Positions 9,301-36,150 of a DNA stretch of 64,000 nt are shown here, piece after piece. A program made the translations under genes and the position numbers. This DNA is from Klebsiella pneumoniae (GTDB lineage: Bacteria; Pseudomonadota; Gammaproteobacteria; Ga0077536). The notes under the pieces were generated by a model. The model did no database searches. It was given only the letters and a program-made list of their open reading frames with translations, and was not told where the DNA came from. How positions within the stretch are numbered: position 1 is the first letter of the stretch; every line of letters starts with the position of its first letter. The DNA is taken from positions 3,096-67,095 of the forward strand of contig CAMCQE010000004.1 in the NCBI GenBank assembly GCA_945876945.1, given 5' to 3'.

Positions 9301-9778
9301 TGGAGGTCGGGCGCCGATGCTTGACGGCGCGCCCCACGAGGTCATCAATCATGCCCTGCAGCCCCATCTTCATGCCGTCGGTCGGGTGATAGATGCGCTC
9401 CACCCCGTAGGCCTGCAGGTCGGCAATTTCTTCTGGCGTGATGGTGCCACCGCCGCCGCCGAACACGCGCACGTGACCGGCGCCGGCTTCGCGCAGCAGA
9501 TCGACCATGTACTTGAAGTACTCGTTGTGGCCGCCCTGATAGGAACTGATGGCGATGCCATCGGCGTCTTCCTGCAAAGCAGCCTGCACGACGTCCGACA
9601 CGCTACGGTTATGACCGAGATGAATCACCTCGGTGCCCGCGCCCTGAATCAGTCGCCGCATCACGTTGATCGCGGCGTCGTGTCCGTCAAACAGTGACGC
9701 GGCGGTCACAAAGCGCAACGGTGCGGTTTGCGGGCTGCTGTCGTGCTCGGTCAGCATTTCGTGGGCGGGTGTGCTCAT
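6335..9778 (-). CDS. icmF: Fused isobutyryl-CoA mutase (B12-binding domain + MeaB-type GTPase + mutase barrel)
   Basis: The N-terminal B12 domain reads [28 protein letters not shown]3E GTPase P-loop ([12 protein letters not shown]) follows, then a long C-terminal acyl-CoA mutase substrate domain. At 1147 aa it fits IcmF. Confidence 0.9.
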
Positions 9779-20324: not shown

Positions 20325-20852
20325 ATGAACACCAACGCTACTGCCGATTATGTCCAGATTAACGATTTGCCCTGGATGCCGTTTCCAGCCGCCCTCTCGG
20401 CCGGCGGCATCCGCTGGAAACTACTCCATGTATCGCCTGAAATGGGCGCGTGGACCGCGATTTTTGATTGCCCGAAAGGCTCTTCCTTCAATCGTCACGT
20501 CCATCTCGGCCCGGGCGAATACCTGCTGACCAAGGGCAAAATGGAAGTGCGCGGCGGCGTTGACGACGGTGGCGCGACCGCCCTGTCGCTCGGTTACGGC
20601 TACGAAGCCTGCAACGCCCGCCACGACAAAACCTTTTTCCCGGTCGCCAGCGAGTTCTACATGACCTTCCTCGGCCCGCTTGAATTCATCCACGAAGATG
20701 GCAGCCCGCTGGCCGTTGTCGGCTGGGCACAGGCGCAAGGCTTGTGGGAAGTGCAGATGGCAGAACACGCCGGGGCTGCCAAGAAGGCCGCCAAAGCCGC
20801 CGCGAAAAAAGCCCCCGCCAAGCCGGCGGCCAAGAAAAAGGCCAAAGGCTAA
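20325..20852 (+). CDS. Cupin-fold protein (ChrR-like / 2,4'-dihydroxyacetophenone-dioxygenase-like) with Lys/Ala/Pro-rich C-terminal tail
   Basis: The ATG at 20325 follows an AAGGGGAGA Shine-Dalgarno sequence. A cupin metal motif NRHVHLGPGEY is present, and the C-terminus reads AAKKAAKAAAKKAPAKPAAKKKAKG. Confidence 0.6.
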   Translation: MNTNATADYVQINDLPWMPFPAALSAGGIRWKLLHVSPEMGAWTAIFDCPKGSSFNRHVHLGPGEYLLTKGKMEVRGGVDDGGATALSLGYGYEACNARHDKTFFPVASEFYMTFLGPLEFIHEDGSPLAVVGWAQAQGLWEVQMAEHAGAAKKAAKAAAKKAPAKPAAKKKAKG

Positions 20853-22651
20853 GTCAGGTCTCCTGACAGACCGCGCTGCGCGATCTGCGGCTCGCGCAGC
20901 GCGGCCACAAAGGTCAGTGCGCGCTGACAAAAACCGCTGCTCGCCGCGTCCACGCCCAGCGAGGGCGCCACGGCCAGGAATTTCTCCAAGGCCGCGTTAA
21001 GCAGATCGGCCAGTGCGTGCGGAGACAGACGCATGGAATTCCGATACCGGAAGGCAAGGTCTTCGGTGTCCGCCAAAGGCTCTGCCTGCGGGCGATAAGC
21101 CGCTTCACATAGCTCATTGGCCAATTGCGCAATCAGCCGCAACTGCAGGGCGTCGTCCAGCGGCGGCTCGCGCGGCTCGCTCAATACCGGCGCCATGCTT
21201 TCCACAATCGCCGCCGGGAACTTCCACAATCTCGCCACCGCCGCGCCCATCGTCGCACAGGTGCTTCCCAGCACCTGGCGCTCAGCCTGCAAGGGCAGCA
21301 CGTCGTTGTTCACCAGCCCGGCAATCTCACTCCACTCCTCTGGCAGGTAGTACATCACCAGATTTCGGCCCAATCGGTTGAAGAGCCCGCAGATAAAGGC
21401 CTCTTCGGCCAATTCCCGCCGGTACAACAGGCCCAGATTCCGCGCCATCAAGCCCGCGACGAAACAACTGACCAGCGCATCCTGTAACTCTGCCTGCCCG
21501 TTTTGCAGACGCTCAAACACCAGCAGGCCGTTGCACAGCAAACGAATCAGGCGTGTCCCGACCATGCCAATGGCTTGCGCTACCGTGGTCACGCCCGCCC
21601 CGCCCCGATCAAAAAACGCCGAGTTGGCAATCTTCATCAAGCGGTTGGTGAGGCTGAAGTCGCGTTGAATCACTTCAGCCAGTTCGTGGAGATTGGTGAG
21701 GCTGCCCTCACCGGTCATTCGGTTAATTTCGAGAATATTGCTGGAAAAAGCCGGAAACTCCGGACGCCGCTGCAAGCGTCGCAAGAGAAATTGCACGGCG
21801 ACGTCCTGTCTGGCGGATTCCGTCTGGCTGGCAAGCGTTGCCGCCAGCATCTGGGCGAACTCGCGTGCGGTCTGGAAGCGCGCCACGGGTTCCCTGGCCA
21901 GCGCATCACGGAGCAACTGAATCAGGCCCGGAGAAACACCCCTTGTGCGCAGTCCTTCCCAATCAAATTTGCCTTGCAGGATGACGCTCCGCACCCGCGT
22001 TAGCCCGTCGCCTTGTGCCGCCGCCTCGCCGGTCAGCAACTCGAACAGGATGAGCCCCAGGGCGAAGACATCGGTTCGTTGGTCAAGCTTGCCGGCGGAA
22101 AAATGCTCGGGGCTCATATAGCGCGGCGTGCCGTGCATGCGCTCTTCGCCGGCGTCGCTGCCGGTGCGCGACACGAAGCGCGCCAGACCGAAGTCCATGA
22201 TGCGCACCCGCCCATGGCGGTCGAACATAAGATTGTTGGGGGAAAGATCGAGATGGACGACGTCTTGCTCATGCGCGACCGCCATGCCGTCGAGAATCTG
22301 GACAAACAAACCCACAGCCTCCGCCTCCGGGATGCGTTCCCGCTGCAGAATCTCCTGCTTGAGCGGAATGCCTTGCACGTACTCAAACACCAGAAACGGC
22401 ATTTTGCCGTGCATACCCACTTCGTACAGCGGGATGATGTTGGGATGGGCGAGACGCGCCACCGCGCGGGCTTCGGTCATGAACTGCGCCCGACTTGCGT
22501 CGTCGCTCTGGCGTGCGCCAAGCAGCCATTTAATGGCCACTTCGCGTTCCAACTGGGGATCCCAGGCCAGGAAAACCCGGCCATGGAAGCCGCGCCCCAG
22601 CTCTTTTTTGAGTTCAAATCGTCCGAGTTGGGTTTTCTTCGCCTCGCTCAT
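20849..22651 (-). CDS. Ser/Thr protein kinase domain fused to a C-terminal HDOD domain
   Basis: Hanks kinase motifs are present: GRGFHGRVF, VAIKWL, HLDLSPNN, MDFGLA and MSPE. The C-terminal half carries an HDOD-like FPAFSSNILEINRM..VIQRDFSLTNRLMKIANSAFF region. Confidence 0.8.
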   Translation of the reverse strand: MSEAKKTQLGRFELKKELGRGFHGRVFLAWDPQLEREVAIKWLLGARQSDDASRAQFMTEARAVARLAHPNIIPLYEVGMHGKMPFLVFEYVQGIPLKQEILQRERIPEAEAVGLFVQILDGMAVAHEQDVVHLDLSPNNLMFDRHGRVRIMDFGLARFVSRTGSDAGEERMHGTPRYMSPEHFSAGKLDQRTDVFALGLILFELLTGEAAAQGDGLTRVRSVILQGKFDWEGLRTRGVSPGLIQLLRDALAREPVARFQTAREFAQMLAATLASQTESARQDVAVQFLLRRLQRRPEFPAFSSNILEINRMTGEGSLTNLHELAEVIQRDFSLTNRLMKIANSAFFDRGGAGVTTVAQAIGMVGTRLIRLLCNGLLVFERLQNGQAELQDALVSCFVAGLMARNLGLLYRRELAEEAFICGLFNRLGRNLVMYYLPEEWSEIAGLVNNDVLPLQAERQVLGSTCATMGAAVARLWKFPAAIVESMAPVLSEPREPPLDDALQLRLIAQLANELCEAAYRPQAEPLADTEDLAFRYRNSMRLSPHALADLLNAALEKFLAVAPSLGVDAASSGFCQRALTFVAALREPQIAQRGLSGDLT

Positions 22652-22715
22652 GGCATTGATGTCGGCAGGATCGGCGCGGGCTTCATCTGCGGCATGAGCG
22701 GCGAGAGTGCGAGCT

Positions 22716-23573
22716 TCAATCCAGCACTCGCATCAAGCCTTCCTGCGCAACGCTCACCACCAGTTCGCCCTCCCGGGTATAAAAGCTGCCGCGCGCCAGG
22801 CCTCTTGCGCCGGCAGACGCCACCCCTTCGCAGTGATAAAGCAACCAGTCGTCCACCCTGAAAGGCCGGTGGAACCACATCGCGTGATCGAGACTCGCCA
22901 CCACCAGATTGGTATTGCCCAAGGTGAAGCCATGGTGAGCCAGCAAGGTCCAGATCAATCCGTAGTCGGACAGATAGGCGAGCACCGCGCGGTGCATATC
23001 CGGTTCATCCGGCAGACGCTCCAGCGTGCGCACCCAGGTGCGCCGAAACGGATTGCCAAAGGCGTCTTTCGCACCTTCCGGCCCATCAATCGGCCGCGAC
23101 TCGAAGGGCGCGACGATCGTCATCATGCGTTGGATTCTGGGCGACTGCTGGTCGAAAGCGGACCAGTCCCAGACCTGCGGGGCGACCGCTTCCGGCGGCG
23201 GCGCCTCCGGCATTTTGCCCTGGTAGGCAATGCCCGCTTCCTCCCGATGAAACGAGGCTTCCATCGTGAAGATCGGTTGACCGTGCTGAATCGCAGTCAC
23301 CCGCCGGGCCGAGAAACTGCGTCCGTCCCGGCTCCGGTCCACGGTGTAAATGACCGGATGAAAGGCATCGGCTTCACGTAAAAAATAGGCATGTAGTGAA
23401 TGCGCCGGGCGGTCGTCTTCGACCGTTAACTGCGCGGCTTCCAGCGCCTCGCCCAGCACCTTGCCCCCGTAGACGCGTTTGACATGGGTGTCTCCCACCG
23501 CGCCCCGAAAAAGATTTTCCTCGAGTTTCTCGAGCCGCAGTCCGTTGACGAGTTGTTGCAGGGCGCCGGTCAT
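22716..23573 (-). CDS. tesB: Acyl-CoA thioesterase II
   Basis: LEKLEENLFRG ... VYGGKVLGEAL and a double-hotdog length of 285 aa match TesB. Confidence 0.85.
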   Translation of the reverse strand: MTGALQQLVNGLRLEKLEENLFRGAVGDTHVKRVYGGKVLGEALEAAQLTVEDDRPAHSLHAYFLREADAFHPVIYTVDRSRDGRSFSARRVTAIQHGQPIFTMEASFHREEAGIAYQGKMPEAPPPEAVAPQVWDWSAFDQQSPRIQRMMTIVAPFESRPIDGPEGAKDAFGNPFRRTWVRTLERLPDEPDMHRAVLAYLSDYGLIWTLLAHHGFTLGNTNLVVASLDHAMWFHRPFRVDDWLLYHCEGVASAGARGLARGSFYTREGELVVSVAQEGLMRVLD

Positions 23574-23582
23574 TGGTGGCGC

Positions 23583-24401
23583 TCAGGTAAACGCGTAATC
23601 GGCGGTGGGGAATTCACGCTCACGCACTTCGCGTACGTAACGCGCGGCGGCGGCGTGGATGGAATCAGCGCCTTCCATGTAATTTTTAGAGAATCGGGTG
23701 CGCTTGCCGGGCGCGATATCGAGGATGTCGTAGAGCACCAGAATCTGGCCGTCGACCTGCGGGCCCGCGCCGATGCCAATTACCGGCACCGCGGCACTGG
23801 CGGTAATTTTCGCCGCCAAATCCATCGGCACACATTCCAGCAGCAGCATGTCGGCGCCGGCGGCTTCCAGCGCGCGGGCGTCTTCCATCATTTTGGCGGC
23901 CGTCGCGTGCTCGCGACCCTGCACGCGATAGGCGCCAATTTTGTGAATGGCCTGGGGCGTCAGGCCCAGATGCGCACACACCGGAATGCCGCATTCGGTG
24001 AGTCGAGTCACCATATCGAGCTGCAAAGCGCCCCATTCCAGTTTGACCATTTCCGCCCCGCCCTCTTTCATCAGGCGGGCCGCGTTGCGCAGGCAGTCCT
24101 CAGCCGAGGAGTAGCTCATGAAGGGCATGTCTGCCATCACCAGCGCGCGTTGCACGCCGCGCGTCACCATCTGCGTGTGGTAGATGATGTCTTCCACGCT
24201 GACCGGAATGGTGGTCGATTGCCCCTGGACCACCATGCCCAGCGAATCACCCACGAGCAGAAAGTCGCATCCCGCCTCGTCCAGCACGCGGGCAAACGCG
24301 GCGTCGTAGGCGGTCAGCGAGACGATCGGCGTACCGGCGGTCTTCATTTGTTTCAGGGTGGAAACGGTCACCTTGCGGTGAGATTGTTGATGCGAACTCA
24401 T
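23583..24401 (-). CDS. panB: 3-methyl-2-oxobutanoate hydroxymethyltransferase
   Basis: LKQMK..G.PIVSLTAYDAAFARVLDEAGCDFLLVGDSLGMV and the rest of the protein match the PanB pattern. Confidence 0.9.
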   Translation of the reverse strand: MSSHQQSHRKVTVSTLKQMKTAGTPIVSLTAYDAAFARVLDEAGCDFLLVGDSLGMVVQGQSTTIPVSVEDIIYHTQMVTRGVQRALVMADMPFMSYSSAEDCLRNAARLMKEGGAEMVKLEWGALQLDMVTRLTECGIPVCAHLGLTPQAIHKIGAYRVQGREHATAAKMMEDARALEAAGADMLLLECVPMDLAAKITASAAVPVIGIGAGPQVDGQILVLYDILDIAPGKRTRFSKNYMEGADSIHAAAARYVREVREREFPTADYAFT

Positions 24402-24411
24402 AGCGTTTTAC

Positions 24412-24828
24412 TCAAGCTCCGGTCTGCGCTGCCTGTTTTCGTGCGCAGCCAGCAAGAAATCGGTTTAATTCAACAGGGGCCCGGGCATGCCGGCCGCGCC
24501 CGATAAGGTCCACGCCATCGTGGGCCTCCACTTCAAAAGTCACCAGCGATTTGGAGACCTCAAGCACTCTCGCCGTCGCCGTCACGGTCATGCCCACCGG
24601 GGTTGCCGCCAGATGCCGAACATCCACCAGCGCGCCCACCGACACCCAGCCCGCGGGCAGATACGGGCGAATGAGATCGGCGCACACAATTTCCATGAAG
24701 AGAATCATGTTCGGCGTGGAATACACCGGCGGCAGATCCGGCACGGTAGCTTGCACGGTCAGCGCCTGCGTGACGTGCTGCGTCTGGCTCAGGCGGATAT
24801 CGAGCGGGATGAATTGCGGCCACTCCAT
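24412..24828 (-). CDS. Hotdog-fold thioesterase-like protein
   Basis: At 138 aa, with YSTPNMILFMEIVCADLIRPYL..G..SVGALVDVRHLAATPVG, it resembles small hotdog thioesterases. Confidence 0.55.
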   Translation of the reverse strand: MEWPQFIPLDIRLSQTQHVTQALTVQATVPDLPPVYSTPNMILFMEIVCADLIRPYLPAGWVSVGALVDVRHLAATPVGMTVTATARVLEVSKSLVTFEVEAHDGVDLIGRGRHARAPVELNRFLAGCARKQAAQTGA

Positions 24829-24837
24829 CTCGAAGCC

Positions 24838-25719
24838 TCAGCGCGCCAGGCCTGGTAGCCAACCCGCAATGGCTGAGGCAATAGCGTCCGGCGAATCTTC
24901 CTGAATGAAATGCAGTCCGGGCACGGTCACTTCCTGTTGGTTCCTGAACGTCCGGCACACCTCGCGCACGCGGCCGGCGATGACCATCCCCGGTTCGGCA
25001 TTAATGAACAGCTTCGGCGTTTCGCTCGCGGCCAGCCACGCGCTGTAGCGGGCCACGATGGCGCAGGACTCGGGCGGTTGATCGTCGATGGGGATTTGCC
25101 GAGGCCAGGTCAACGTGGGCCGCCGCGCTTCGCCGACTTCGGCAAACGGCGCGCGATAGGCGTCCATTTCTTCGGCAGTAAGTTCGCGCAGGATGGACTT
25201 CGGCAGCACACGCTCCACAAAAATGTTTTTGTTGAGGATGAGGTCTTCGCCAGCGTCCGAGCGAAACGCCTGAAAGATCCCCCGCGCGGATTCCGGCCAA
25301 TCGTCCCAGCTGAGTGCGATGGGAATGCCTTCCATATAGCAGATTCCCGCCACCGACCCCGCGTGCCGCGAGGCCCAGTCGAAACCGAGCGCCGTGCCCC
25401 AGTCGTGCAACACCAGCGTCACGGCCTCGGTCACGCCGAGCGCGGCCAGTGCCGCGTCGAAATACCCTTGATGCTCGGCCAGCGTGTAGCGCCCGGGACC
25501 TGAGTCCGGCAATTTTTCCGAGTCGCCCATGCCTATCAAATCCAGCGCGATACACCGGCCTTGCGTGGCCAACTGCGGCAGGATGTTCCGCCACAGATAG
25601 GACGAGGTGGGGTTGCCATGCTGAAAGACAATCGGCGCGCCCTGCCCCTGCTCGACGTAGGCCATGCGCCGGCCCAGCACCTCAATGAAGCGCTTTTGCG
25701 CCACCCAGGAATTGCTCAT
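24838..25719 (-). CDS. Haloalkane dehalogenase, HLD-II type
   Basis: Key motifs are HGNPTSSYLWRNILPQL, the nucleophile in LVLHDWG, YMEG (acid) and GLHFIQEDSP (His). I chose the ATG at 25719 (GAGGG Shine-Dalgarno), 10 nt after the upstream stop. Confidence 0.85.
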   Translation of the reverse strand: MSNSWVAQKRFIEVLGRRMAYVEQGQGAPIVFQHGNPTSSYLWRNILPQLATQGRCIALDLIGMGDSEKLPDSGPGRYTLAEHQGYFDAALAALGVTEAVTLVLHDWGTALGFDWASRHAGSVAGICYMEGIPIALSWDDWPESARGIFQAFRSDAGEDLILNKNIFVERVLPKSILRELTAEEMDAYRAPFAEVGEARRPTLTWPRQIPIDDQPPESCAIVARYSAWLAASETPKLFINAEPGMVIAGRVREVCRTFRNQQEVTVPGLHFIQEDSPDAIASAIAGWLPGLAR

Positions 25720-25729
25720 GACTTTGCCC

Positions 25730-26860
25730 TCATGCCACGACGCCATTGGCTTTCAGCGCCGCGTAGTCGCCGGCGCTGATCCCGACGGCCAGCAGCACGG
25801 ACTCGGTATCCGAGCAATCGGACGATTTCGGACGCGGGCTTGGCGCCGGGGTCCCGCTGAAGCGCGGCGAAGGTGCCGGTTGGAGTTCCCCCGCCACATC
25901 GATAAAAGTGCCGCGCGCCACGTTGTGCGGATGCAACGGGGCTTCCGCCAAATCGAGCACCGGGCCGTAACAGACATCGGTGCCTTCAAAGATGCCCGAC
26001 CATTCGTCGCGGGTTTTGGTTTTGATGATCGCGCCAATGTGCGCTTTGAATTCGGGCCATCGCTCGGGCACGTGCTGTTCGCCGAACACCGCATCGGTCA
26101 GCCCGAGTTTCTCGCGCAGGATGGCGTAGAACTGCGGCTCGATTGAACCAAAAGCCACGTATTTGCCATCGGCACACTCGTAGCACCCGTAGTAGTGCGC
26201 GGCGCCGGCCAGCGCGTTACTGCCGCGCACGTTGCTCCATTGTCCCTTGGCGTACACGCCGTAAATCATGCTCATGAGGCTGGCAGCGCCATCCACCATC
26301 GCCGCATCCACCACCTGACCACGACCGGTGCGCGAGGCCGAGAACAGTGCGCAGACCATGCCGTAGGCCAGGAGCAGTCCGCCGCCACCGAAATCGCCCA
26401 CCAGATTGAGCGGCGGGAACGGCGGGCGATCCGCCTCACCCATCGCGTGGAGCGCGCCGGTGATGGCGATGTAGTTGATGTCGTGACCGGCCGCGTTCGC
26501 CAGCGGGCCATCCTGCCCCCAACCGGTCATGCGCCCATAGACCAAACGCGGGTTGCGCGCGAGACAGACATCCGGCCCCAAGCCCAGACGCTCCATCACA
26601 CCCGGCCGGAAGGGCTCGAACAGGCCGTCGGCCTTGGCCACCAGCGTGAGCGCGAGTTCCACGCCGCGCGGGTCTTTGAGATTCAAACCGATCGAACGGC
26701 GATTGCGCGACAGGGCGCCATCGGCCCCCAGCGGCGGTCCGCCCTGCGGGCGGTCGATGCGAATAACGTCGGCGCCCAAATCGCCCAAAAATGTGCCCGC
26801 CAGTGGTCCGGGACCGATACCGGCAAACTCGATAATCGACAGACCTTCCAGCGGGCCCAT
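25730..26860 (-). CDS. Family III CoA-transferase (CaiB/BaiF; racemase-like)
   Basis: It begins MGPLEGLSIIEFAGIGPGPLAGTFLGDLGADVIRIDRP. The internal ATG at 26860 overlaps the upstream stop by 4 nt. Confidence 0.85.
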   Translation of the reverse strand: MGPLEGLSIIEFAGIGPGPLAGTFLGDLGADVIRIDRPQGGPPLGADGALSRNRRSIGLNLKDPRGVELALTLVAKADGLFEPFRPGVMERLGLGPDVCLARNPRLVYGRMTGWGQDGPLANAAGHDINYIAITGALHAMGEADRPPFPPLNLVGDFGGGGLLLAYGMVCALFSASRTGRGQVVDAAMVDGAASLMSMIYGVYAKGQWSNVRGSNALAGAAHYYGCYECADGKYVAFGSIEPQFYAILREKLGLTDAVFGEQHVPERWPEFKAHIGAIIKTKTRDEWSGIFEGTDVCYGPVLDLAEAPLHPHNVARGTFIDVAGELQPAPSPRFSGTPAPSPRPKSSDCSDTESVLLAVGISAGDYAALKANGVVA

Positions 26861-26862
26861 GC

Positions 26863-27741
26863 TCAGCGCCCCGCCCGGCCGACCATCGCCAGGATGCGTT
26901 CGGCCTGTTTGAGATGCGGCATGTCGATCATCTTGCCGTTGAGATTGAGCGCGCCCGCGTCCGGGTTGGCCGCGAAGGCATCCACCACCGCCTGCGCATG
27001 CTCGATTTCGGCCGCCGAAGGCGTAAACGCTTCGTTGATGATGGCCACCTGGTCCGGATGAATCGCAATCTTGCCGAGGTAGCCATCGCGGCGACCGTCT
27101 TCGCATTCCCGCTTCAGCAGCGTGGGATTGCGGAAATCCGGGCATACCGTGTCCAGCGGTTGCACGCCGGCGGCGTGGGCGCCGAACAGGCACAGCGAGC
27201 GCGCCAGCACATAGGGCGCGGTGTATTCGCCGTCAGACCCTTTGTTGGACGACGCGCCCAGCGCGGCGGCGAGGTCTTCTGCGCCCCAGGTCAACACGCG
27301 CAGACGCGGGGCGCCTTTGTACTGGCCAAGGCTGAACGGCGCGATGGCCGTCTCAGTCGCAATCGCGCAAATCGCGATACTGCCCTGCGGAATACCGTGT
27401 TCGATTTCCATCGCGTCGAGGTAGTGGCTCAACTGCTGAATGTGATGCGGCCCGTCGCACTTCGGTAGCGCGATGCCATCGGGGCGGGCTTTGGCGACCG
27501 CCGTGATGTCGCGCAGGGAATCCGCCGTATCGAGCGGATTAATCCGCACCCACAGCTCGCCCTCGGAGCGGTCGGCGGCGCGCAGGTATTCCTGAATCAT
27601 GTCGCGCGCGACCGGACGGCGCGAGGCGGCCACCGCGTCTTCCAGATCGAGAATCAGGGCGTCGGCGCCAACGCTGGCGCCTTTGGCGAGCTTCTTTTCG
27701 CTATCGCCGGGGACAAACAACATGGAACGTAAGACGGTCAT
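26863..27741 (-). CDS. HpcH/HpaI aldolase / citrate-lyase beta-subunit-like (CitE-like) acyl-CoA lyase
   Basis: MLFVPGDSEKKLAKG..ADALILDLEDAV is the CitE-like signature. The ATG at 27741 overlaps the MaoC gene stop by 4 nt. Confidence 0.8.
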   Translation of the reverse strand: MTVLRSMLFVPGDSEKKLAKGASVGADALILDLEDAVAASRRPVARDMIQEYLRAADRSEGELWVRINPLDTADSLRDITAVAKARPDGIALPKCDGPHHIQQLSHYLDAMEIEHGIPQGSIAICAIATETAIAPFSLGQYKGAPRLRVLTWGAEDLAAALGASSNKGSDGEYTAPYVLARSLCLFGAHAAGVQPLDTVCPDFRNPTLLKRECEDGRRDGYLGKIAIHPDQVAIINEAFTPSAAEIEHAQAVVDAFAANPDAGALNLNGKMIDMPHLKQAERILAMVGRAGR

Positions 27742-28193
27742 GCGGGCTTCCTCAGCATCAGGCCGGTGCGTTTGCACGCGGCGACGAGTTCATTGCGCTG
27801 GTTGTAGGCGCGGTGGGCAAAAATCACGATGCCGTTGGTGGGTCGGGATTTGGTGTCGCGCAATTCCACGACCTCGGTCTGAAAATGCAGGGTGTCCCCG
27901 TGAAAAACGGGCTTGGGGAAGCGCACTTCGTCCCAGCCGAGGTTGCCCACCGTGGTCCCCAGCGTGGTGTCGTAAACGGACACGCCCACCATCACCGACA
28001 GCGTAAAGCAGCTGTTAACGATGCGTTGGCCGAACTCGGTCTGCGTGCGGCAATACTCTTCGTCGAGATGCAGCAGCGCCGGGTTGTGGGTCATGGTGGT
28101 GAACAGCACGTTGTCCGTTTCGGTGACGGTGCGACGGATGGGATGGTCAAACGTCTGTCCGACGTAAAATTCTTCGTAGTAAAGTCCGGGCAT
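27738..28193 (-). CDS. MaoC-like (R)-specific enoyl-CoA hydratase/dehydratase
   Basis: The YEEFYVGQTFDHPIRRTVTETDNVLFTTMTHNPALLHLDEEY pattern fits single hotdog MaoC hydratases. Confidence 0.8.
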   Translation of the reverse strand: MPGLYYEEFYVGQTFDHPIRRTVTETDNVLFTTMTHNPALLHLDEEYCRTQTEFGQRIVNSCFTLSVMVGVSVYDTTLGTTVGNLGWDEVRFPKPVFHGDTLHFQTEVVELRDTKSRPTNGIVIFAHRAYNQRNELVAACKRTGLMLRKPA

Positions 28194-28218
28194 GTTGCCG
28201 CGCTCCCCTGTTGGTGGT

Positions 28219-28250
28219 TTGAAAATTGGCAGGCGTCCGCATTATACGGA
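28219..28250. promoter_or_regulatory. Candidate overlapping divergent promoters
   Basis: On the minus strand, a perfect TATAAT (complement of 28241-28246) lies about 47 nt upstream of the MaoC start. On the plus strand, TTGAAA (28219-28224), an 18-nt spacer and TATACG lie upstream of the 28326 gene. Confidence 0.3.
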
Positions 28251-28325
28251 TTTGATCCGGCGCGGCTTCCGCAAACCTGAGCTCCCGATTAGCATGGCCG
28301 CACCCTCATTTTCCGGAACACGCCC

Positions 28326-28769
28326 ATGCCGCACGCCGCCTTTGACGACAGTCTGATCCAGTGGCAGCCCTTCGGGCGCTATCAGGGTTTTCAGTACGCC
28401 CTGCTCCACGTCGACAGCACGACCCGCACAATGGACATGCTCTTCCGCTTTGAACCCAACGCGGACTGTTTCTATCACCGCCACGTGGCTGCCTCGCGCA
28501 CGCTGGTGCTGGCCGGCGAATATCGGGTCCGCGAGCCGCAGGCGGATGGCACCGAAGTTCTGAAAATTCGCCAGCCCGGCAGCTATGCCGCCGGAGAACC
28601 CGGCGACGTTCACATTGAAGGCGGCGGCCCCACCGGCTGCATCCTGCACATTTCCATCACCGCCCCCACCGACCACGTCTACGACATTCTCGACGAGCAA
28701 CTGCAAATCAAACGCTCGATCGGGATTGCCGACTTTGAAAACACTTTCAAGGCGCTGCAGGCGGCCTGA
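28326..28769 (+). CDS. Small cupin-like hypothetical protein
   Basis: GC3-biased coding. FYHRHVAASRTLVLAGEY ... GDVHIEGG resembles a cupin two-motif pattern. Confidence 0.5.
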   Translation: MPHAAFDDSLIQWQPFGRYQGFQYALLHVDSTTRTMDMLFRFEPNADCFYHRHVAASRTLVLAGEYRVREPQADGTEVLKIRQPGSYAAGEPGDVHIEGGGPTGCILHISITAPTDHVYDILDEQLQIKRSIGIADFENTFKALQAA

Positions 28770-30639
28770 GGGCGTTCCCGGATTCGCGCGCCTGCGCCAG
28801 CAGGCCTCGAACCCTCTTGAGTAGCTCGTCGTACGCCAGCGGTCGCGCGCTGGCTCGGGCCTCCGCCAGGGTTAATGATTCCGCGGCGGCAGTCAGCTCG
28901 CCCCGTGTGATCTGCCATTCTGCGCCGAGCAGCAGCGGCACCGGGCTGGCCGGGTTTTTATCCGCCGCGTCCTTCACTGCGGCAAACGCGATCTCCACCT
29001 CTCCCGCCTGCCAGGCCAACTGCGCGCGATAAAGGCGCAGTTTGTCGTAGCTGTCGCCCAGAGTCGTTGGCTTGGTGAGGGCGAGGTCTATGAGATCGCG
29101 CAAGTCGCGCCCCGGCAACTCACAGGCGCCTTCCAGCTTGAGTCGCGAGAGTTCCAACAAGCCGACAACGGCGTAGGTGGTGAGTGTGCGCTCCACCGCG
29201 AGCATCCCGGTTTCCAGCCTGACTTCCTTCACCGAGTGCGATTCCATGCACTCGATATGAGCCCGCTGCAACAGGGATCCGGCGCCGGGCAAGCCGCTGA
29301 GCAGCGCCCTGGCTGCAGCATATTGGCCCTGGGAGGACAGCCGCTCCGCCAACTGTGCGGCGGCGGTGGGCGAGCGGGGATGCAATTCATACAGGGCGAG
29401 GTCGAGCCGGGTCTGTTCACTCCAGTCGTAGACGATGGCGCGGGCGACCAGCAGGTTCAGGCACAACACCGCGACCAGCGCGGCTGCCCCGATGCGCCCG
29501 TAGACCCAAGGTCTGGCCAGCGCCATGGCGCTAAGCAGAATGCCAAACGACGGCAGATAGTTGCGATGCTCAAACATCAATTCCAGCGGGATGACGCTCG
29601 ACTCCAGCGACTGTCCCACCAGAAACCAGAGCAGGCCCAGCGCCACCAGCGGCTGGCGACGCCGCAAGCCCCAGCCGGCAAGTCCCAGCGCGCCCACTGT
29701 CAGACAGGCGGGCAAAGTGGTAACAGGGATCCAGAGCGATTGGGAAACGGCAATGTCGTCGTGCAAAAAACCGAGGCGGGCACGACTTGGCGCGAGGATT
29801 TCTGCGAGATACAGGCACAGCACGCGCGCCTCTGTCAGCAAGCGCTGCGCCAGCGTAAAGCCGCGCCGCGTGTAGGCAGCCGACAAGCCATCGTCCAGAT
29901 GCCGCAGCCAGTACACCCCGCCCAGCGCGAGCGCTGAACCCCCTAAAGCGAGCAGCAGGATCCGGGAGAAACGCCGCAGGCCGGCGTCACCTTTGCCGGC
30001 GAGCACCGTGAACTCGAGCGCGCCGAGGAATCCCGGCAGCAGCAGGCCGTTTTCCTTGGCACCGGCCGCGAGCGGCAAGCACAGCAAGTACACCAGCAGG
30101 ATCCGCAGGCGCGCGGGCCATCCGTCGGGCCGGTGCAGGCGAGTGTCGAGATAAAGCAGCATGCCGCAGACGCTGAACAGCGCCGAGAGTTGGGTCATGC
30201 GCTGTACCGTGTACAGCACGGTCGACACCCACAAAGGATGCAACAGCCACCAGGCGCCCAGCGCCACGCTGAGCACCGCGACCGCGCGCGACGAGAGTTC
30301 ACGCTGCGTGCTGAACACCAATCTCGCCAAGCCCACCAGCGCGATCCCGATCAGGCAATGCAGCAGCACATTGCTCAGCTTCCAGGCCCATAGCGCGTTG
30401 CCGAACAGGCTTGCGTTGGCGAGGAAACTCAGCATCGACACCGGCCGCCCCAGCGGCCCGGTAGGGCTCATCACCCATTGCGGCCAATCGGGTGGGAGCC
30501 CGTCCGCTTCAAGCAAACCCTCTAGCGCATGGTAGTCGTCAAACACCAGCGGGCCGTGCAGCCCCGGCAGATACAGCCACAGCGTGAGCGCGCAGAGCCC
30601 CGCCAGCGCGACCATGCACGGCAGGCGACGCTCGCTCAT
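28747..30639 (-). CDS. Polytopic membrane protein with GT-C-like (TMTC/PMT-type) N-terminal domain and C-terminal TPR-like repeats
   Basis: PLVFDDYHAL follows the first TM segment, more than 10 hydrophobic segments follow, and the tail is a helical repeat. I prefer the ATG at 30639 (GAAGGA Shine-Dalgarno) over the GTG at 30666. Confidence 0.55.
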   Translation of the reverse strand: MSERRLPCMVALAGLCALTLWLYLPGLHGPLVFDDYHALEGLLEADGLPPDWPQWVMSPTGPLGRPVSMLSFLANASLFGNALWAWKLSNVLLHCLIGIALVGLARLVFSTQRELSSRAVAVLSVALGAWWLLHPLWVSTVLYTVQRMTQLSALFSVCGMLLYLDTRLHRPDGWPARLRILLVYLLCLPLAAGAKENGLLLPGFLGALEFTVLAGKGDAGLRRFSRILLLALGGSALALGGVYWLRHLDDGLSAAYTRRGFTLAQRLLTEARVLCLYLAEILAPSRARLGFLHDDIAVSQSLWIPVTTLPACLTVGALGLAGWGLRRRQPLVALGLLWFLVGQSLESSVIPLELMFEHRNYLPSFGILLSAMALARPWVYGRIGAAALVAVLCLNLLVARAIVYDWSEQTRLDLALYELHPRSPTAAAQLAERLSSQGQYAAARALLSGLPGAGSLLQRAHIECMESHSVKEVRLETGMLAVERTLTTYAVVGLLELSRLKLEGACELPGRDLRDLIDLALTKPTTLGDSYDKLRLYRAQLAWQAGEVEIAFAAVKDAADKNPASPVPLLLGAEWQITRGELTAAAESLTLAEARASARPLAYDELLKRVRGLLAQARESGNALRPPAAP

Positions 30640-36083: not shown

Positions 36084-36150
36084 AGTCAGGTATTCCCAAT
36101 GCTGGAATGGAGACCGCGCCGGGGCGCGTGGCCGGATTATACGGAGCAAG

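Follow-up and report, generated by a model that had tools for sequence, protein, structure and literature searches.

Gene block in the window

The window analysed in this work is a stretch of DNA of 64,000 nucleotides (nt), to which all coordinates refer, from the source genome G000 (3.8 Mb, 63% GC, 97% complete). The window belongs to an uncultured gammaproteobacterial family of lakes and rivers that is represented only by metagenome-assembled genomes. The subject of this work is a block of seven genes on the minus strand in which a haloalkane dehalogenase (HLD) of the HLD-II type is followed by a homologue of the thioesterase FlK. For most haloalkane dehalogenases encoded in genomes, neither the natural substrate nor the role is known. 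The main value of the block is the fixed, expressed, and family-wide operon context that it gives to an HLD-II beside a close FlK homologue, and this context is a lead and not a mechanism. The block is a concrete and testable setting for HLD-II function. The features of the block and of its surroundings are listed below from the promoter side to the terminator side.

28241..28246, minus strand: -10 promoter element TATAAT, within TCCGTATAATGC, read from the sequence
27738..28193, minus strand: MaoC-type single-hotdog enoyl-coenzyme A (CoA) hydratase, 151 amino acids (aa) (Pfam PF01575, E 1e-22)
26863..27741, minus strand: CitE-like acyl-CoA C-C lyase, 292 aa (Pfam PF03328, E 1e-29)
25730..26860, minus strand: gene 3, alpha-methylacyl-CoA racemase homologue with the family-III CoA-transferase fold, 376 aa (match to PDB 1x74)
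24838..25719, minus strand: HLD-II haloalkane dehalogenase, 293 aa (NCBIfam NF002938)
24412..24828, minus strand: FlK-family hotdog thioesterase, 138 aa (Pfam PF22636, E 5e-33)
23583..24401, minus strand: PanB, ketopantoate hydroxymethyltransferase, 272 aa (TIGR00222)
22716..23573, minus strand: TesB-type acyl-CoA thioesterase II, 285 aa (Pfam PF02551, PF13622, and PF20789)
20849..22651, minus strand: Ser/Thr kinase-HDOD gene, 64 nt downstream of TesB (Pfam Pkinase and HDOD)
20815..20829, minus strand: terminator-like hairpin and T-run (6-bp stem with 5 G-C pairs, then GGGCTTTTTT)

All seven open reading frames (ORFs) that an earlier reading of the sequence alone (the sequence-only reading) had listed from MaoC to TesB were confirmed on the minus strand. 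The junctions from MaoC to TesB, as read from the sequence, consist of an ATGA overlap (-4 nt) and then gaps of 2, 10, 9, 10, and 9 nt. Their earlier description as 4-nt overlaps or 9-10-nt gaps was nearly right and missed only the 2-nt gap between CitE and gene 3. The HLD-II gene has an alternative in-frame ATG upstream, at 25746, that would give an ORF of 302 aa. The start at 25719 is preferred and the start at 25746 appears less likely because GAGGG is located 7 nt before 25719 and because alignments with the orthologues begin no earlier than residue 7-12 of the longer ORF. Six of the seven block products are enzymes of CoA esters or of CoA-precursor synthesis. Family searches of the block proteins identified neither a CoA ligase nor a CoA-transferase in the block, and the block also has no regulator and no dehydrogenase for alcohols or aldehydes.

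Transcription of the block

The perfect TATAAT is located 47 nt before the ATG of MaoC, at 28246..28241, where the sequence-only reading had placed it (about 47 nt upstream). It was not called by the consensus promoter scan, which found no fitting -35 element. Perfect TATAAT was observed 46 times in the genome on both strands, compared to about 310 occurrences expected from base composition. TATAAT is also found upstream of MaoC in 13 of 18 relatives, mostly as CCGTATAATGC, within flanking sequence that has diverged. The promoter is therefore credible despite the missing -35 element, because the hexamer is rare across the genome and is conserved in these relatives.

Two further observations concern this hexamer. 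CG precedes eight of the 46 perfect TATAAT sites in the genome. The 10-mer TCCGTATAAT has two copies in the genome, both in the window (28241-28250 and 36136-36145) and both upstream of acyl-CoA operons. It was rejected as a meaningful shared element, since two copies compared to 1.8 expected are not significant on their own.

Inside the block, the terminator scan identified no terminator-like site on the minus strand. Downstream of the promoter, this strand has its first good site of this kind at 20829-20815, past the kinase-HDOD gene.

The RNA cover of 20500-28900 was determined by mapping contigs of four river metatranscriptome runs, which are 95-99% identical to the window, to this region. 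Single contigs of 2.4-3.8 kb reach from MaoC across CitE and gene 3 into the 5' part of HLD. The FlK/PanB, PanB/TesB, and TesB/kinase junctions are bridged by other contigs, the last of these in three runs. The contigs thus bridge six of the seven junctions when TesB/kinase is counted, and the exception is HLD/FlK. In three of the four runs, the end of the long contig on the MaoC side lies at 28213-28225, some 16-28 nt downstream from TATAAT, and separate contigs of the divergent cupin gene begin at 28304-28319. A stretch of about 80 nt (28225-28304) between the MaoC and cupin contigs is therefore without RNA cover in three of the four runs, and this stretch fits two back-to-back promoters. 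The depth differs 20-fold between adjacent genes in these contigs. The uncovered promoter gap and the 20-fold differences in depth argue for RNA rather than carry-over of DNA.

The proposal that the block is one transcription unit, which had been made from the sequence alone, is supported by the conserved -10 element, the absence of internal terminators, the synteny across the family that is described below, and the RNA contigs across these junctions. The unit is probably transcribed from TATAAT, and it probably extends across the kinase gene as far as the hairpin at 20829-20815. The kinase-HDOD gene is probably the eighth and last gene of the unit.

Conservation of the block within the family

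The surroundings of panB were compared in 17 other genomes of the family, which cover about 13 genera and show PanB identity of 66-90%. The order MaoC-CitE-...-PanB on one strand is exhibited by all 17 loci. The full order in the family is MaoC, CitE-like, (gene 3), HLD-II, FlK-type, PanB, and TesB. HLD is present in 16 loci and missing from the block in one. TesB is present in 15 loci and absent in two, and FlK is present in 13 loci and absent in four, of which one retains a remnant. Gene 3 is present in five loci only and absent from the block in 12. The kinase-HDOD gene follows TesB in ten loci, and the upstream cupin gene is kept in one.

The same pattern is exhibited by 12 further block-bearing contigs from a collection of species-representative genomes, one of which (L076) is without CitE. 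Of the seven genes, only MaoC and PanB are present in every one of these blocks; for each of the other five (CitE, the racemase homologue, HLD, FlK, and TesB), at least one relative has a block without it. FlK has been lost in at least eight block-bearing loci overall. The core order and the tight spacing persist at protein identities of 52-75%, while both flanks are reshuffled. The sequence-only reading had named a block that breaks up in related genomes as evidence against a unit. This survey was run and the core held together, which favours a unit.

Several observations were made on individual loci. One locus (L010, genome G021) carries between HLD and PanB, at 9322-9399, a FlK remnant of 26 aa that is 81% identical to residues 20-45; this remnant is a decayed copy and marks a recent loss. 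Five relatives (L030, L033, L037, L043, and L017 of genome G024) have a gene for an NnrU-family membrane protein of 186-191 aa between HLD and FlK. G024 also has a mechanosensitive-channel-like gene (L017:1880-3379) between FlK and PanB. In L029, L031-L034, L048, and L099, a different gene of the family-III CoA-transferase fold, which shares 28-34% identity with gene 3, is located at a constant distance of about 6.8 kb upstream of MaoC. Most loci with this distant gene are without the in-block racemase homologue, and L033 has both.

Gene modules outside the family

Outside the family, MaoC homologues that are 71-80% identical were examined in 55 loci of Alpha-, Beta-, and Gammaproteobacteria, and in about 45 of these loci CitE comes next. 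MaoC identity across these three groups is 71-97%. Those stand-alone MaoC-CitE loci are without HLD, FlK, PanB, and TesB. They have no conserved neighbours; the variable ones are an NADPH oxidoreductase, an acyl-CoA synthetase, an acyl-CoA dehydrogenase, a family-III transferase, and BKACE. Three loci that were fetched from sister families have no block genes within about 9 kb of panB.

In a sample of 401 Pseudomonadota genomes, 20 have FlK-family genes and 19 have HLDs that score above the cut-off. The 19 FlK loci and 18 HLD loci of this sample that lie outside the family have no block partner within about 8 kb, so that the pairings HLD-FlK, HLD-PanB, and FlK-PanB do not recur there. The gene combination is not described in the literature that was searched. 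The individual genes are ordinary members of known families, and it is the combination that is confined to one uncultured family.

These distributions bear on the reading that the genes are co-transcribed and functionally unrelated. Such a block would have formed by a chance fusion, in the ancestor of the family, of the stand-alone MaoC-CitE pair with an HLD gained by horizontal transfer, a hotdog gene, and the relocated panB-tesB, and it would have been kept only by descent and by the shared promoter. The single origin of the arrangement is consistent with this reading, as are the foreign insertions in the block (the NnrU gene in five loci and the channel gene in G024), the free loss of individual genes in relatives, and the many unrelated contexts in which HLD-II genes sit in the 18 loci elsewhere. 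However, the core order and tight spacing have survived considerable protein divergence beside reshuffled flanks. The share of block products that act on CoA esters or in CoA synthesis also appears to exceed what random neighbours would give, which is our inference and not a computed statistic. We consider this reading doubtful.

MaoC, the CitE-like lyase, and gene 3

The best solved relatives of MaoC are the beta-methylmalyl-CoA dehydratase 8hgn and the mesaconyl-CoA hydratase 4e3e. Asn38 of MaoC stands where PaaZ has the catalytic Asp561, and His43 is kept; the same Asn/His pattern is exhibited by the second domain of mesaconyl-CoA hydratases. The Protein Atlas adds no more than the name 'MaoC family dehydratase'. 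The best solved relatives of the CitE-like protein are human CLYBL (5vxc, 5e-36), Mycobacterium tuberculosis Rv2498c (6aq4), and RipC. A fair reading of these matches is that MaoC and the CitE-like protein form a predicted pair for hydration and cleavage of dicarboxylyl-enoyl-CoA.

Gene 3 matches the alpha-methylacyl-CoA racemase MCR of M. tuberculosis (PDB 1x74) with 400 bits and E 7e-119 over residues 2-356. True family-III CoA-transferases match it with about 1e-38 and at most 135 bits. Gene 3 has all of the racemase residues H126, D127, D156, and E241, and none of them varies among 10 orthologues. Judged from these features, gene 3 is an alpha-methylacyl-CoA racemase homologue and not an Ict/RipA-type transferase, and the earlier assignment of gene 3 as a CoA-transferase is withdrawn. 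No CoA-activating enzyme remains in the block because gene 3 is a racemase homologue.

The sequence-only reading had also compared the first three genes to the itaconate operons RipABC and Ict-Ich-Ccl. This analogy does not hold. MaoC reaches 123.2 bits against the RipB/Ich equivalog NF038241 (cut-off 340). The CitE-like protein reaches 164 bits against citE and 157 bits against RipC/Ccl (NF038242, cut-off 375), both under the equivalog cut-offs. The three genes do not travel together, as only MaoC-CitE is conserved outside the family. The itaconate pathway was rejected on the missing CoA-transferase, the scores of genes 1 and 2 under the cut-offs, and the absence of gene 3 from 12 of the 17 family loci. 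This corrects an annotation error, since a racemase read as a CoA-transferase would suggest an itaconate pathway.

PanB and TesB

PanB reaches 333.6 bits against TIGR00222 (cut-off 207.55), and panB is the single match in the 97%-complete genome. It is regarded as a housekeeping gene because it is the sole copy, and a pathway paralogue of panB was ruled out on the same ground. The only panB of the family is shown here to have moved out of the usual panBCD cluster. The panC gene is on another contig (G000:C10:9363-10190, locus L122). A search for PanD (PF02261) gave no match in G000 and none in the 12 other genomes of its genus.

PanD is found beside panB in most sister families, and several sister-family genomes other than those of the three fetched loci have panD 1-2 kb from panB on the same contig. 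The block was considered as a substitute for PanD in beta-alanine supply and rejected, as the block-bearing genomes G014, G017, and G024 have PanD and there is no clean link. No PanP-type source of beta-alanine was identified: the sole group-II pyridoxal phosphate decarboxylase of the genome (L123:1318-2796) scores 107 bits, far under the PanP cut-off of 606 bits, and it is also far under the cut-off for diaminobutyrate decarboxylase.

TesB is likewise the single match in the genome. It exhibits full-length matches to TesB of Yersinia pestis (4qfw) and Escherichia coli (1c8u) with E of about 1e-76. The three Pfam domains are present, and TIGR00189 scores 264.7 bits, under its cut-off of 292.85. 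In the alignment with Y. pestis 4qfw, two motif residues match, namely Asp in SD(Y/F) and Gln in QEG. We take these residues to be the counterparts of the catalytic Asp204 and Gln278 of E. coli TesB; the position of Thr228 is presumably the one occupied by Ser in the block TesB.

HLD-II and the FlK-type thioesterase

The HLD-II protein reaches 401.5 bits against NF002938 (cut-off 241) and is LinB/DmbA-like with E of about 1e-116 to 1e-121. The pentad N45/D115/W116/E139/H279, in the numbering of the 302-aa ORF from 25746, is invariant in 29 orthologues. The protein is thus an active-looking dehalogenase as judged from its residues. HLD and the racemase homologue have invariant catalytic residues, and FlK nearly so, in orthologues that are 48-89% identical.

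The FlK-type protein aligns ungapped to FlK of Streptomyces cattleya (E 5e-20) and reaches 113.7 against PF22636 (cut-off 27). Its residues T38, E46, G65, H72, and R116 correspond to T42, E50, G69, H76, and R120 of S. cattleya FlK. They are kept in 22 orthologues with one exception, a change from Thr to Pro in one of them. The position of the gate residue F36 is Leu in the block protein, Leu in 17 orthologues, and Met in five. It has been reported that Thr42, Glu50, Gly69, and His76 are conserved across FlK homologues generally, and that Arg120, which forms the fluorine contact together with Gly69, varies among homologues (Dias et al., 2010; PMC2903362). No fluorinase was identified in the genome; its sole SAM_HAT protein is similar to the S-adenosylmethionine (SAM) hydrolase PH0463 (7e-42 compared to 2e-11 for FlA). 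No type-II haloacid dehalogenase was identified in the genome either, where the best match, on another contig, reaches 118 bits and is below the cut-off of 125.4.

The sequence-only reading had suggested that the block may define a new route for a branched or halogenated organic acid. In its fullest form, this would be one dedicated route of catabolism or detoxification for a natural compound that is halogenated, methyl-branched, or both, such as freshwater halogenated lipids or haloalkanes. HLD would remove the halide, and the racemase, MaoC, and CitE would process branched acyl-CoA intermediates. The FlK-type protein and TesB would hydrolyse toxic or dead-end products such as haloacetyl-CoA, and panB would replace sequestered CoA. 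MaoC-CitE-HLD-PanB is nearly invariant across the family, and the racemase homologue points to 2-methyl-branched CoA esters. The FlK homologue, located 9 nt after the apparently active dehalogenase, keeps the equivalents of Arg120 and Gly69, which have been linked to fluorine recognition in FlK (PMC2903362). However, a CoA ligase or transferase, an alcohol or aldehyde dehydrogenase, and a regulator are all absent from the block. FlK has been lost in those eight or more loci, the racemase homologue in most loci, and HLD in one. The pairing is repeated in none of the 18 other HLD loci and none of the 19 other FlK loci of Pseudomonadota. The equivalents of Thr42, Glu50, and His76 are general features of FlK homologues and not markers of halo-specificity, and Phe36 is replaced by Leu or Met. 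The suggestion is therefore weak, given that panB is the sole copy, that all genes but MaoC and PanB can be lost, and that HLD and FlK are partners in one family only. We regard a dedicated route as unlikely.

A more specific proposal concerns the physiology of the HLD-II and FlK-type pair. With this pair, these freshwater bacteria might use natural organohalides, for example halogenated lipids or haloalkanes, as food or might withstand them. HLD would remove the halide, and the thioesterase would destroy haloacetyl-CoA derived from beta-oxidation before it reaches the citrate cycle. The racemase, MaoC, CitE, and TesB would clear branched or dead-end CoA esters, and panB would restore the CoA pool. 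We hold this proposal to be quite improbable. If true, it would assign a role in physiology to an HLD known from a genome and also to a FlK homologue from bacteria that are not producers of fluorometabolites.

Proposed composite operon for acyl-CoA and CoA-pool upkeep

The best explanation of the block, to which we give an even chance, is a composite and family-specific operon for acyl-CoA and CoA-pool upkeep in which a dehalogenase is embedded, and not one linear pathway. What the data given above show is the identity of the genes, their catalytic residues, their synteny, the conserved -10 element, and the RNA cover. The substrates, the logic of CoA upkeep, and any cooperation between HLD and FlK or between the modules are what we infer. 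One promoter would have come to serve the ancestral MaoC-CitE(-racemase) module together with the HLD-FlK pair and with panB-tesB after its relocation. The modules would act on different substrates, and their common theme would be to maintain acyl-CoA thioesters and the CoA pool. MaoC would hydrate a mesaconyl-, itaconyl-, or methylglutaconyl-type CoA ester, which is an unsaturated (methyl-)dicarboxylyl-CoA, and the CitE-like lyase would split the hydrated product into an acyl-CoA and a 2-oxo acid. The optional AMACR-type racemase may epimerise 2-methylacyl-CoA. HLD-II would hydrolyse an alkyl halide, and the FlK-type thioesterase would hydrolyse a small polar alpha-substituted acetyl-CoA, for which haloacetyl-CoA is the leading candidate. 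The sole panB would supply the CoA precursor ketopantoate, and tesB would free CoA from stray acyl-CoAs.

Several points weigh against the composite operon. All assignments of products to substrates are predictions. The CoA theme may reflect the mere commonness of CoA enzymes, and we know of no link between HLD and CoA chemistry. The invariant core MaoC-CitE-HLD-PanB could instead be a pathway with dispensable accessories. The association of the block genes arose once, in one family, and therefore the synteny represents a single evolutionary event. The RNA-library contigs are no proof of a single transcript, as DNA content is possible. The stretch 24715-25270, which comprises the 3' half of HLD and the HLD/FlK junction, has no RNA cover in the four runs. 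Strain divergence is the probable cause of this gap, because one RNA-library contig departs from the window sequence at 25327, and the gap carries no conclusion.

Comparison with known systems

The block resembles RipABC of Yersinia and Ict-Ich-Ccl of Pseudomonas aeruginosa in having a MaoC-type hydratase directly before a CitE-type lyase, with homology at the family level. Unlike the block, those operons are without HLD, FlK, PanB, and TesB, and the block is without an itaconate CoA-transferase. Among solved structures, genes 1 and 2 are closest to the mesaconyl-CoA hydratase Mch with the malyl-/beta-methylmalyl-CoA lyase Mcl and to the citramalyl-/HMG-CoA lyases CLYBL and Rv2498c, with E-values of just 1e-23 to 1e-36. 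The block MaoC has the Asn...His variant of the hydratase motif that also occurs in domain two of Mch. It is a single domain of 151 aa, whereas Mch consists of two fused hotdog domains and has about 350 aa.

Gene 3 is similar over its full length to MCR (Rv1143) of M. tuberculosis and to human AMACR, and the catalytic residues are conserved. It differs from both in its context between a CitE-like lyase and a dehalogenase and in being dispensable in relatives. The FlK-type protein is like FlK of S. cattleya in its ungapped alignment and in the equivalents of Thr42, Glu50, Gly69, His76, and Arg120. It is unlike FlK in the replaced Phe36 gate and in its partner gene, which is a dehalogenase and not a fluorometabolite cluster. 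The block HLD-II is similar to LinB of Sphingobium and DmbA (Rv2579), with E of about 1e-110 to 1e-116, and has the full Asn-Asp-Trp-Glu-His pentad. LinB belongs to the lindane pathway and DmbA is without an assigned role, whereas the block HLD-II is located in a family-wide operon together with CoA-ester enzymes and panB.

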